DNA of 64,000 nucleotides. Origin: an uncultured candidate division Zixibacteria bacterium (lineage in GTDB: Bacteria > Zixibacteria > MSB-5A5 > UBA10806). The stretch covers positions 10,314-74,313 of the forward strand of contig CAWDFP010000008.1 in the NCBI GenBank assembly GCA_963801605.1, read 5' to 3'. A model generated the notes under the pieces. It worked only from the letters and a program-made list of their open reading frames with translations. It made no database searches and was not told the DNA's origin. This document shows, piece after piece, positions 34,801-38,398 of this stretch (positions are counted from its first letter, which is position 1; each line of letters begins with the position of its first letter). Both the position numbers and the translations under genes were made by a program.

Positions 34801-36397
34801 ACCTTTTTATGAGCTTATCACACCGCCGCAGCGCCGGGTGCAGGATCGGGATAATTATATGCGAGAATTCGGTAAATCCCGAACTTCGCAAGTACGGGAA
34901 GCTGAAGTATTTGTAAGAAAAAGCGGCGAATCCGTGGCTATTCAATTCACCAACGATTACATAATGCAGGACGGTCAAGCCAGGTACGAAGTAACCATGA
35001 ATATCGATATTACGCCGAAGAAACGCGCCGAGGATGCTATGCGTGAAAGCGAGGAGAAATTCAGGCTTTTGGTAGAAAATGCGGGTGAGATTATCGTAAA
35101 TGCTGATCGAAACGGACGGCTCCTCCATGTCAATAAATCAACCGCCAGATATTTTGGCAAAACACCCGAGGAAATTATAGGCAAGAATATTAAGGATTTT
35201 TTTGAACCGGATACGGCAGAACATTTCATTGAAAGTATTAATAAGGCGCTGGATACCAATAAAAATCTAAGCGTCGAACGAAAGATTTTCCTCGTTGGCG
35301 AACGCAAGTGGTTCGTTACAAACCTGCAGCCTATAATCAGAAGTGACAATGGCCCGGCCAGCGTGCTGATTATTACCAGGGATATTACCGTTCAAAAGCT
35401 TGCCGAGATACGTAACCAGGCTCGGCTGCAACTCCTGCAGAACCTACGCCAGGCTAAAAATGTCGATGAATGTTTAAAATTCGGGTGCCAGGCAATCTAC
35501 GATACCGAGCTTTTCAAACGAGCTGTTTTGACGCTGCATAATAGCGATAGGGCCATAATCAATTTGGGACAAGTTGGTCTTAGCGCTGCTGTTGTTACCA
35601 AAGCCAGAAAAGGTTCGGCTCCGGATATCGCCCTTGCAAAAAAAATCATGAAAGAGACTAATCGCATCAGCCACTCTTTCTTCGTTCCGATAGAAAGCGG
35701 AATAATGAGCAAAATTAAAAGCCGCTACGTCCCGCAAAAAGGAACTCATTTTCCGGGCCCGCAGAAGTGGCAACAGGAAGACGAGCTATTCGTGCCGGTG
35801 ATGGGTAACGACAATAATTATGAGGGCTGGCTTTCTGTCGATACTCCCTTCGACGGGAATCGTCCCACCATGCAGACTGTCTTAAACCTGGAAGAGATAG
35901 TTGATATTACGGCCAAACAGATTCATGAAATCCAAAGTCTCGAGCGTCTAAAAAAAGAGAGTCAGGCGCTGGAGAATACTAACGTGGCCCTGCACGAAGT
36001 GTTGAAACATATTCAGGAAGAAAGGATGGAAATTCGGCAGAGTATCGGCAGTAATGTTTCTCAAATTCTGATACCTGCTTTTAACAAGTTATTCAAAAAA
36101 GATGGTACAATCAATAAAACCTATTACAATATTCTTAGAGACGGACTTCCGGAGCTTGTTACGGTCTCGGGTGCAGAACTGAACATGTTTGCGAAACTAT
36201 CTCCCCGGCAACGTGAAATCTGCTATATGATAAAAAGCGATGCTACCTCGAAGGAAATAGGCGAGGCACTCAATATTTCTCTGGCTACGGTTCAAAAACA
36301 TCGGGAGTTAATCCGCAAGAAATTAGGAATAAACCACAAATCAGTCAATTTGGCTAACTATCTTAAAGGTATACAGAATAAAAGGTTAGAGCAATAA
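31895..36397 (+). CDS. Multi-PAS (9) + GAF-like + LuxR HTH one-component transcriptional regulator
   Basis: Nine PAS/PAC repeats ending in DIT/DIS linkers; C-terminal LSPRQREICYMI...SKEIGEALNISLATVQKHRELIRKKLG; no kinase or REC domain seen. Confidence 0.85.
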   Translation: MIVDETNQRDSQNGNRNQGDQQNAGTNAMSRLSRRNELIRNNSPDGLAIIGLDGTIVDANPALCKFLGYSAEELQKLNIRDIDANEKPDETGQRIINIINSGADRFETKLRHKSGQLLDVYISADFCQIGDEQFIISFSQDITARKKAEERHRESEEKYRNLIEMSPHTIAILQDGKVAFANKKAVELFAGSVTADVIGRDVFDVVPENEKARLREFAERRYTGDTSVPVRYKTALRRADGEVFPVEIFADQIIFRGRPAIQLMAIDITEQEQAAAALKVSESKYRTLVEHTNAVTYEFRLGPNMGFIYISPQIEKLIGYNADELISDPSLWTSLLHPGDSQRARESAERRLTGGSPLSNEYRVIAKNGSIVWIKNEAIIERDDKGQPNIIRGVILDITSLKETEATLASSEKRYQELFNSALEGIVISDINYVIQFCNPAIASIFEIQDVSEIIGKSTLDLVIDSQKEVLIDQMKLRKKGLSTHYELQIITALKNSKTLLVSSSPLYESNGDFRCILSAVIDITESKRAQAALAASEKRYHELFNSALEGIAIFDKNLIVQFCNPAYAKIFDMNTPEEVVGENPLNYIEGNQKTIAIRQIEMRKKGLSSTYELEVITIKKNRKTLLVSSAPMLDSEGNFSGTLNTAIDISERKQTEEALRTSEEFNRTVIEHSPLAVSVRNRTGKLLSCNRAWQKIWNRTDEEIKEMLTKEIPALQFTKGDDYLKDWHPKVRAIYERGGNLHIPEVKLLYHHEGGEHWVSQHFYGIKDQSGAVGKVVILTEDISERKQAENALRESERRFHDLFAHFTSGYMIGRIITDDAGKPIDYIYLEVNEAFEEMSKKKAFEVIGKRVTELFPSGHSAGLIKVCGEVALTGKPIRIEHESLVVGRFLEVLIYSTRQGEFASVFTDITEKKKSENALRESEERYRAIWENSPVGICMLDYRGVYQYVNRTYCNIYGYSSEELIGKPFYELITPPQRRVQDRDNYMREFGKSRTSQVREAEVFVRKSGESVAIQFTNDYIMQDGQARYEVTMNIDITPKKRAEDAMRESEEKFRLLVENAGEIIVNADRNGRLLHVNKSTARYFGKTPEEIIGKNIKDFFEPDTAEHFIESINKALDTNKNLSVERKIFLVGERKWFVTNLQPIIRSDNGPASVLIITRDITVQKLAEIRNQARLQLLQNLRQAKNVDECLKFGCQAIYDTELFKRAVLTLHNSDRAIINLGQVGLSAAVVTKARKGSAPDIALAKKIMKETNRISHSFFVPIESGIMSKIKSRYVPQKGTHFPGPQKWQQEDELFVPVMGNDNNYEGWLSVDTPFDGNRPTMQTVLNLEEIVDITAKQIHEIQSLERLKKESQALENTNVALHEVLKHIQEERMEIRQSIGSNVSQILIPAFNKLFKKDGTINKTYYNILRDGLPELVTVSGAELNMFAKLSPRQREICYMIKSDATSKEIGEALNISLATVQKHRELIRKKLGINHKSVNLANYLKGIQNKRLEQ

Positions 36398-36651
36398 ATT
36401 TTATAAATGTTAAGTTCGTAACAATAGCAATTATTAATGGGTCTATTTACAGTATAAAAAGTGATTATCTAAATTACGCATATCAGCAAATAGCCAGAAT
36501 AACACTTTTCAGAATCCCCTAATCGTCAAAGGCAACGCTCCTTCAAATTCGCATATATATTGTATTGTATTACAACCGTTTACAAGATTGGGCTCGTCGG
36601 TTCTTGATTTTAGAAATTAAATCCAGGCGAATTATTTTAGAAAAATCCCAA

Positions 36652-36724
36652 ATATGCGTAAGTTTATATACGCATATATTAAGCTTTTTAACCGGATTGA
36701 CAAAGCTGACAATTATCATATTAT
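36652..36724 (+). promoter_or_regulatory. Sigma70-type promoter with upstream palindromic operator
   Basis: ATATGCGTA-N8-TACGCATAT (36652-36677); TTGACA 36697-36702, 16-nt spacer, TATTAT 36719-36724. Confidence 0.65.
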
Positions 36725-36730
36725 GGCGAT

Positions 36731-37147
36731 GCAAATTGCGATAAACGCAGTTGCCAGAAAGCAAAATGGCAGGGATTTAGTAAAGGCCGTCAATTAGTAA
36801 TAGGTTCTTAAGCGCGGCAGGCCGTCAGGAGGGACACTTAACAGGATCGACATCGGAGTTTGCGATCTGGACAAGGCTACAATGATTATTAGTAATTTTA
36901 GAGCGATCAGTATTGGAAAATTGTTTTCTCCCGAGTATCAAGTCGCCATAAGGAAATCAGAAGGGCTGTTCTCTCCAGCCAACGAAACACGCGTGGTTGC
37001 CTCAATTAAAGGATGGAGGAGGGTCTAAGGATCTCACGGGAGCAGGGAAGCTCCATAAGGATGATTAGATTCTAAGTTTTGGCTCGTCGCTCCGACGGGT
37101 AAACCCGGTATCCCAACCGAAAAGCCGCTCTGCCAGGAGCGGCTTTT
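36731..37147 (+). ncRNA. Candidate CsrB/RsmZ-like GGA-rich small RNA
   Basis: 15 GGA on + versus 3 on - within 36773-37061, several in short hairpin loops; promoter upstream, terminator downstream; no long ORF in this interval on +. Confidence 0.5.
37120..37147. terminator. Bidirectional intrinsic terminator
   Basis: aaaagccgctc-tgccag-gagcggctttt. Confidence 0.85.
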
Positions 37148-37167
37148 AATTTATGGGAAAAGCTATT

Positions 37168-38398
37168 TTATCTGGTGGGTGGACAATCGGGACAGAAGCT
37201 AACAGGCAAGCCTCGTTGAAAACACCATTCCATGAAAGTAACATCCATACCGTTGAATACGCAGTTGCCATTGGCGTCACCGCCGGCGTAAAACGTTCCG
37301 TGAGGCGAGCAATCGCAGGAGTCAGGCGGACGGGGCCCTCCTTTGAAATAGGTTATAGCCATGGTAACGTCCATAAGATTGTAATGATCGTTGCTGTCTA
37401 GATCACCCGGTTTGTAGTCGCAATGGGTGGGATTGAAAGAATATATTTCCATCGTTTCCCAACAGGCCGCATAAACGTAATTATAATCACGCGACACTCC
37501 TTGAGCGCGTGCGGGTGTATGTGCCGACGCTACCTCGATAGGGGCCTCTGGATCGGAGATGCGCGCTACCACCAGCCCCGAATCCTCGACAGCAATATAA
37601 GCATAAGAGCCATTAACAGCGATGCTCCTGGCGTTATCCGGTGTGGCCAGGTTACCTACTATGGTCGGATTTTGGGGATCTATAACATTGACCACCTGCA
37701 TACCGGCGGGACCGTCAGCAACGAAGGCATATCCGCGGGGTAAATTACCCAGAGAAACATCGGTAGCGTTGCCGGGCGTATCGCACGTTCCCAGGATCTG
37801 AATATTATTCGGATCAGCCACGTTCAGAATCATTAGACCGGCGTTACCGGCGGCGACGTACAGATAACGGTCGAATACAAGTCCGGACGCATACCCGGGA
37901 ATCGTAAAGCCACTTATTAATGCTGGAGAACGGGGATTCGAAATATCAATTACTTTAATTCCACCCTCGCTAACGTAGGCGTAATTATCAGGCCAGACCG
38001 CGACAGAGAGCGCCTCCCACATAAAACTAACCGCGCTTAGCGATTCCGGATGCGCCTTGTCGCTGATATCGATAATATAAAGATCGCCCATATAGGGCTC
38101 CGATAATCCTGCCGCCAAAAAAGCCAGGTTTCCGGCAATCTCGATATCAAAAACGGCCGGTGAGGGGTTATAGCTGCCTGTATAGATCGGCGCCGACGGA
38201 TTAACCACATTGTAAATAAGCATCCCCAACATATAATCACCGATATAAGCAAAACTATCAGCAACTGTTACGGACGTTGCGTAAGCCAGCGAATCAACAG
38301 CTCCCATATAAATTAAACCCTGTGCTGAACCGGTAGTTGGTATCAGAAATATGAGCGTTAATAAAAGCGTGACTATGAATGTTCTTTTTACTTAGCAT
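37168..38398 (-). CDS. Secreted LVIVD-repeat beta-propeller protein with C-terminal dockerin-like domain (frameshift in signal-peptide A-run near 38387)
   Basis: Repeats YAYV/AFVA...GL.I.(D/N)VS.P..P; RBS AAGGAGG before ATG 38398; signal peptide RTFIVTLLLTLIFLIPTTGSAQ in the frame of the main ORF. Confidence 0.8.

Follow-up and report, generated by a model that had tools for sequence, protein, structure and literature searches.

A predicted base-pairing small RNA encoded behind a PAS-GAF-LuxR regulator in an uncultured Zixibacteria bacterium

The 64,000-nt window analysed here, part of a Zixibacteria genome (source genome G000, with contigs labelled C5, C6 and C7), contains what is probably a genuine small-RNA gene (Table 1). 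According to the reading that we prefer, with a probability of about 0.58, its product is a trans-acting small RNA whose C-rich 3' hairpin would pair with the 5' end of a methyltransferase mRNA and whose synthesis would be driven by the regulator encoded upstream. The RNA is best read as an Hfq-independent base-pairing RNA of the RoxS/FasX kind. We infer its transcription, the binding of the regulator and the pairing inside the cell from genome sequences. The sequence-only reading that first pointed to the locus had proposed a GGA-rich sponge for CsrA resembling CsrB and RsmZ; its claim that a non-proteobacterial lineage holds an independent gene for a small RNA is supported, in a Zixibacteria genome that carries csrA.

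Table 1. Features of the small-RNA locus (positions in the 64,000-nt window)
Feature	Position	Strand	Remarks
One-component regulator, 1500 aa	31895..36397	+	PAS repeats, GAF-like domain, coiled coil, LuxR/GerE HTH
Operator palindrome TGCGTA-N8-TACGCA	36655..36674		22 nt before the -35 box; in all 6 loci
Two degenerate half-site repeats, 11-bp steps	36680..36696	+	Between palindrome and -35 box; 76-site matrix
Sigma-70 promoter	36697..36724	+	TTGACA 36697-36702, TATTAT 36719-36724, 16-nt spacer
Predicted small RNA	36731..37147	+	About 415 nt; start deduced from -10 box; based on promoter, 3' domain and terminator kept in orthologues whose downstream genes differ
Variable body with 15 GGA	36773..37061	+	Not conserved in sequence, length or GGA content
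48-codon open frame inside body	36882..37028	+	Lacking from 5 orthologues; unlikely to be a gene
Best CsrA-type site	37040..37053	+	4-bp stem, AGGGAA hexaloop, fully unpaired in both folds
Hairpin H1, loop CUC	37083..37099	+	Near-invariant; changes seen preserve pairing
Hairpin H2 (37106-37119), loop AUCCCA plus flanks	37101..37121	+	Predicted base-pairing seed
Intrinsic terminator stem-loop	37120..37147	+	Shared here with convergent gene; hairpin kept in orthologues, sequence changed
Convergent LVIVD-repeat gene	37168..38307	-	Mere neighbour; other genes replace it in relatives

The predicted small-RNA gene, its conserved 3' end and its probable regulator

The TTGACA-16-TATTAT promoter named in the sequence-only reading was borne out as an 11/12 match to the sigma-70 consensus, and its -35 box is invariant among the orthologues. 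The intrinsic terminator downstream of the small hairpins is likewise present as a stem-loop; it is missing from the output of the strict terminator scan. It had been cautioned that this terminator also serves the LVIVD gene and is no independent evidence. The sharing holds for the source genome, but the caveat is eased since the terminator persists in relatives although the downstream neighbour changes. The comparison comprised five distinct orthologous loci, those of genomes G001 and G002 and the metagenome loci L064, L067 and L068, which together with the source amount to six; L066 and L065 were left out as they are identical to G001 and G002. All five orthologues are located behind the same regulator, the C-terminal part of which is 54-69% identical, and all retain the promoter, with the palindrome or a near copy of it 22 nt ahead of the -35 box, a 3' double hairpin and the terminator, while their downstream genes differ. 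The orthologous RNAs are about 230-260 nt long. Their bodies do not align with that of the source, and only those of two close relatives align with each other. The gene has its own promoter and terminator and, in the five orthologues compared, no conserved reading frame. As a whole, the RNA folds no better than shuffled sequences (z=-1.2). Rfam yielded no match at gathering score in the window and nothing relevant, including any CsrB, CsrC or Rsm family, at E<=10 in 36300-37300.

The "small GC hairpins" ahead of the terminator, mentioned only in passing in the sequence-only reading, are indeed present and turned out to be the near-invariant part of the RNA: a 3' domain of about 38 nt varies at just two positions among the six loci. 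The operator ahead of the promoter, another conserved part, had gone unmentioned in that reading. Stem and loop of H2 are identical in 6/6 loci; the loop is unpaired in the local fold and just partly unpaired in the global fold of the source copy. H1 and H2 together comprise 12 pairs, every one of which holds in each of the six loci (72/72 cells), with two pairs varying one-sidedly and none two-sidedly, which argues for constraint on the sequence itself, as expected of a pairing seed. Since the seed never varies, covariation with it is not seen either. A DNA search with the 3' 76 nt over 285 genomes confined the domain to this genus, with matches mainly to the terminator in 10 other genomes. 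The whole domain is single-copy in the source genome at up to 6 mismatches. The short seed pattern, searched over 24 genomes, occurs near control level outside G001, and of the matches inspected outside the genus 7/8 either lay in coding sequence or had no clear meaning.

The regulator contains no receiver domain according to Pfam and scores far below the cut-off of the UvrY model. An AlphaFold model of its last 336 residues (pLDDT 84) consists of a GAF domain, a long helix and the HTH, and its top Foldseek matches are the GAF domains of DosS and DosT. Homologues are mostly labelled Zixibacteria, and many others uncultured bacterium or Ignavibacteria. The protein is the likely activator of the RNA gene. 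An operator at fixed spacing is found in 24/29 genomes of families f1, f2 and f4, and the combined operator-promoter pattern occurs one to seven times per genome in 12/13 genomes of f1, 8/10 of f2 and 3/5 of f4, with a reversed-pattern control near zero in these families; in many cases it appears to drive a short terminated RNA. Sixteen other genomes of the 285 have one match each, mostly at control level. G015, G022, G025 and G050, which belong to the same families and are without the regulator, are also without the operator; in G009 the regulator runs off the end of a contig.

For a matrix of the operator, 12 of 88 operator-like matches were judged to be chance and dropped, which left 76 sites. 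A score of at least 15 within 700 nt after the stop codon was reached at 34/37 full-length regulator genes and at 10/38 HTH-only relatives, in a test set that overlaps the training sites and excludes 12 GAF-only loci. The operator often lies just a few bases after the regulator stop, and the reversed matrix scored at 0/37 full-length genes and 0/75 overall. It is from this linkage that we infer binding of the regulator to the palindrome. A lone half-site is situated at 36474-36482, 77 nt past the stop codon of the regulator gene, and likewise in G001. Six sites score above 22 in the source genome; five precede short terminated RNAs and one a gene. Two of these five RNAs, the one described here and that at C6:772315, carry the C-rich seed and three carry runs of G. 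Protein-coding genes, many of which seem to specify a signal peptide, also lie behind the operator-promoter (e.g. L122, L130, L136, L138, L148 and L150), and the regulon therefore includes mRNAs. Further downstream in L030, L032 and L077 lies a sequence which we take to be cobalamin-riboswitch-like.

The predicted methyltransferase target and related RNAs

Gene starts in the source genome were taken from a simple caller (2773 genes), which misses short genes, and 2772 predicted leaders were ranked by duplex energy with the 21-nt seed. Two class I SAM-methyltransferase paralogues came out on top (-26.7 and -25.9 kcal/mol); as 2/20 shuffled seeds reach -26.7 or better, the ranking alone is not significant. 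The third-ranked leader, that of a secreted protein (G000:C6:1821313), was dropped as a core target with the site in 1/13 loci. The methyltransferase orthologues of G001 and G002 carry a complementary site as well (-28.9 and -27.1 kcal/mol), and each of the four leaders beats 300/300 shuffled leaders (p<1/300). In six orthologues from genera where the RNA was not found the site is missing and energies range from -9.2 to -15.9 kcal/mol. It is thus present in 4/4 copies in the genus and in 0/6 outside, the former from three related, non-independent genomes. The main invariant blocks of the four leaders are the -35 box, the -10 box and GGGATA directly after the latter, which places the complementary site at the predicted mRNA 5' end, 46-50 nt upstream of the start codon. 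The complementary sites of the source genome, in leaders, a gene 3' end and a terminator (n=4), all have the G-rich strand in sense, and both operator-driven seed RNAs carry the C-rich strand. With up to two G-U pairs permitted, 17 paired bases were reached by 6/40 shuffles. A pairing search for a partner of the H1 loop found none.

In the proposed mechanism, a signal read by the PAS/GAF domains would cause the regulator to bind the palindrome and the half-sites beside the -35 box and, once bound, to activate the promoter of the small RNA. The H2 loop is predicted to initiate a duplex at the G-rich 5' end of the methyltransferase mRNA; this duplex would extend to 13-16 base pairs, covering about the first 15 bases of the predicted mRNA. 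By analogy with RoxS and yflS, pairing may stabilise or activate the mRNA through shielding of its 5' end or freeing of the start codon, an outcome to which we give little better than even odds. Folding gives no single direction of control: when the leader site is blocked, the shift in the energy for opening the ribosome site varies with copy and length between +3.6 and -8.3 kcal/mol, opening being eased by 4-8 kcal/mol in one paralogue, with little or mixed effect in two leaders and 0 in that of G002. RNase J yielded no match above cut-off in the source genome, so the mechanism described for yflS cannot apply here without modification. Both RNase E/G and RNase Y are present. The RNase E/G match (G000:C6:966956-968243) spans two adjacent frames, as would result from a split gene, a frameshift or an error of assembly.

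A sister RNA in the source genome (G000:C6:772315-772560, L155) has the same seed and the same operator, with a counterpart on contig C260 of G001 (L146); an operator-driven copy was not seen in G002. It pairs over 16 perfect Watson-Crick bases with one methyltransferase leader, and one pair of this duplex co-changes, being A-U in G000 and G-C in G001. The sister RNA and a three-gene unit, the last gene of which encodes another LuxR-type regulator, are divergently oriented. In G000 and G001 an AcrB/CusA-family gene has a 17-base perfect complement at its 3' end, before the terminator; this site is confined to 2/20 loci and absent from the G002 orthologue. G001 possesses two terminator-bounded non-coding stretches, L237 (C25) and L240 (C96), that contain the G-rich seed complement, twice in the case of L237, and one of them shares 17 bases of complementarity with the sister RNA of G001. 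These two RNAs, and the 3' end of the efflux gene too, could act as sponges. The terminator loop of a gene for a secreted repeat protein (G000:C6:1141254) also carries the G-rich complement.

A second family of operator-driven RNAs, about 60-190 nt long, has a conserved run of 6-8 G beside the terminator. It is represented in the source genome at C6:543285 (+), C7:114073 (-) and C6:1786810 (-) and elsewhere by L009, L027, L033, L038, L039, L045, L050, L112, L113 and others. Their terminator and flanking stems show two-sided changes. This G-run form is more widespread than the C-rich one and is the common form in other genera; runs of at least 6 G follow 18/75 regulator genes in sense and 5 in antisense, against a background of 2%. 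Pairing between G-run RNAs and the C-rich seed was unconvincing (p 0.035-0.48 against shuffles over six pairs). The G-run RNA at C6:543461 could form an 18-base duplex, including two G-U pairs, with codons 4-9 of G000:C6:915778 (+); the encoded protein (413 aa) looks from its sequence like an efflux membrane-fusion subunit. In YPNP motifs of G000 proteins the first proline is encoded by CCC in 61/107 cases versus 29% genome-wide, a comparison made without codon-context control; this usage gives rise to many coding copies of a seed-like word.

The GGA-rich body, CsrA and competing explanations

The GGA counts of the sequence-only reading hold, with 15 on the plus strand and 3 on the minus strand in 36773-37061, and so do the threefold TAAGGA (36949, 37026, 37056), the twofold CCATAAGGA (36946, 37053) and the three hairpins it named (36824-36835, 37040-37053 and 37054-37063). 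ANGGA occurs 8 times over the whole body. Against dinucleotide shuffles the excess of GGA has p=0.0008 for the bounds 36773-37061 and p=0.003 for the whole transcript or body, values that are inflated because the stretch was chosen for its GGA content. Fifteen GGA are attained by 39/122,106 genome windows. Among 27 genome loci with at least 15 GGA per 295 nt, and likewise among 4 with at least 8 ANGGA, the RNA body is the only non-coding one; other apparently intergenic GGA-rich stretches proved to be small genes, such as that for a small membrane protein at C6:1461208. Placement of the GGA in hairpin loops is weaker than had been claimed: 2/15 are fully unpaired in the global fold, 6/15 are mostly unpaired in the local fold, and 9/15 can be placed in some hairpin loop versus 40% in shuffles (p=0.15). 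In relatives the motif is not conserved, which the sequence-only reading itself had named as refuting. None of the five orthologues is enriched (6, 3, 4, 5 and 4 GGA, dinucleotide p 0.15-0.98, one ANGGA each). The body measures 351 nt here as against 160-192 nt in the orthologues, about twice the usual length, and a search within the genome found no donor for it. It is read as a fast-changing linker which may load CsrA, not as a conserved function.

Both csrA and fliW, for which a check of the genome had been suggested, were found, adjoining each other at G000:C5:27311-28050 (L002), in a genome in which no flagellin gene was found. CsrA exceeds the Pfam and NCBIfam cut-offs and is encoded in 61/61 genomes, fliW was found in 56/61 and flagellin in 42/61. 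Flagellin was not found in 3/3 genomes of the genus (69-96% complete), which removes the usual input to FliW. All 19/61 genomes where flagellin was not found retain csrA, most of them with fliW too, and CsrA-FliW seems to have a non-flagellar job in Zixibacteria. In 20 flagellin leaders of relatives (L257-L276) the ribosome site is preceded, at a distance of about 20 nt, by a GGA that for the most part belongs to a short, canonical CsrA-type hairpin, so that hairpin GGA and ribosome site form a conserved two-site layout. Such a layout has been described for Bacillus hag. The canonical consensus used for comparison is that given in PMC7652899. As these leaders bear canonical hairpins, the CsrA motif applies in this phylum; for the same reason the G-run motif was dropped as a candidate for the local CsrA site. 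On a matrix built from the 20 leader sites the best GGA of the RNA scores 6.9, the 95th percentile of genomic GGA being 6.0 and the training sites ranging from 4.5 to 20 (self-scored and hence inflated). Hfq was not found in 26/26 genomes.

That the RNA is, wholly or additionally, a CsrA sponge like CsrB or RsmZ is unlikely, though the least so of the alternatives, and sponging would at most be a recent gain on top of an older 3' domain. Its 15 GGA and 8 ANGGA (p=0.003) are unique among the non-coding DNA of the genome, its lengthened body offers one clean AGGGAA hexaloop, and in the nearest orthologue 6 GGA fall within 160 nt, with AGGGA in one loop. CsrA is universal, relatives present it with canonical hairpins, and the genus appears to be devoid of flagellin. 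Furthermore, a LuxR-type activator that acts at a palindrome upstream would parallel UvrY at csrB, as described in PMC4682653. The same paper reports an anti-correlation between FliW and the BarA-UvrY route to CsrA-binding sponge RNAs, and fliW is located right beside csrA here. With 0/5 orthologues enriched, loop placement no better than chance, inflated p values, weak scores against the lineage's own CsrA sites and no Rfam match, CsrB/RsmZ-type sponging as the main function is not upheld. Compatible with base pairing, and less probable again, is the possibility that the 3' seed pairs while the GGA load CsrA as a matchmaker replacing Hfq. Hfq was not found in the genomes searched, CsrA is universal and uncoupled from flagellin, each orthologue has 3-6 GGA and the leader site itself contains one; SR1-ahrC of Bacillus subtilis, with CsrA, sets a precedent (PMC6546359). 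On the other hand, 3-6 GGA in 160-190 nt are the chance level, pairing would cover the GGA of the leader site, and in the Bacillus case, according to PMC6546359, the sites that matter lie on the mRNA.

Another improbable explanation, ranking marginally behind the sponge, regards the motif shared by RNA and leaders as a protein-binding site on the DNA or a small dispersed repeat, the true target of the RNA being elsewhere. A site at +1 to +15, as predicted for the leader motif, is a usual position for a repressor, and three copies abut terminators. The strand use is, however, consistent with pairing, no second copy of the entire 3' domain appears with 6 or fewer mismatches, the short motif has just about 6 intergenic copies, and H1 is conserved alongside H2 yet lies outside the shared motif. 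It is highly improbable that the transcript is merely the mRNA of the 48-residue frame or a promoter remnant with a terminator. The frame exists, preceded by a weak AAGG, but the codon-level conservation envisaged in the sequence-only reading did not appear, as the frames of at least 20 codons that the five orthologues contain bear no relation either to it or to one another; against a remnant speak the near-invariant 38-nt domain and the operator, both kept across loci with regulators only 54-69% identical.

Relation to known systems and significance

The base-pairing RNA most likely works like RsaE/RoxS or FasX without being a member of either the CsrB/Rsm or the RsaE/RoxS families, as judged from its sequence. 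[quoted passage not shown] With RoxS/RsaE of Bacillus subtilis and Staphylococcus aureus, the RNA described here shares a C-rich seed, control by a transcription factor and a predicted pairing at the G-rich extreme 5' end 44-50 nt before a start codon (PMC5419742). In contrast to them, it belongs to another phylum, matches neither in sequence nor in Rfam, bears its seed in a hairpin loop beside the terminator and is linked to a PAS-GAF-LuxR one-component regulator instead of ResDE/Rex, in a genome where RNase J was not found. FasX of Streptococcus pyogenes likewise pairs through a C-rich motif with an mRNA 5' end (PMC5419742). Homology to FasX was not found, the regulator family differs and the predicted target here is a methyltransferase. 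Like FasX, the RNA is a few hundred bases long and encoded behind its likely activator. The FasX gene is located behind its activator genes.

With CsrB/CsrC and RsmX/Y/Z under UvrY/GacA, the locus has in common the many GGA of this one copy, csrA, a LuxR-type HTH regulator and an upstream palindrome (PMC7652899 and PMC4682653). It differs in that the GGA are unconserved and show no preference for loops, conservation rests with a C-rich element, the regulator is without a receiver domain and FliW is present. The RosA sponge of B. subtilis (PMC8216469) may serve as a model for G-rich RNAs titrating the C-rich small RNA, although the G-run sister RNAs of G000 pair with the seed no more clearly than shuffles do. 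As for SR1-ahrC of B. subtilis (PMC6546359), a FliW-type CsrA exists beside a GGA-bearing base-pairing RNA; unlike there, CsrA binding of either partner is purely putative here. No prior report of a small RNA, a non-coding RNA or a LuxR regulon in Zixibacteria was found in a search that covered few subscription papers, and the LuxR-family regulon is unreported within that scope.

An improbable extension is that the RNA is bifunctional, combining an older 3' base-pairing seed with a newly gained GGA array that sponges CsrA. If so, an RNA antagonist of CsrA in a FliW-encoding, flagellin-lacking lineage would have been caught early, within a multi-copy network of C-rich and G-rich RNAs that forms one LuxR-family regulon and operates without Hfq. 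The locus also illustrates how misleading a GGA count from a single genome can be. Binding of CsrA by the GGA body, if it occurs, would breach the division reported between bacteria that use FliW and those that use sponge RNAs. As the RNA seems to be Hfq-free, it offers a test case for chaperone-free or CsrA-assisted pairing. The analysis supplies a regulator, an operator, a multi-copy family of small RNAs and a predicted target for an uncultured phylum.
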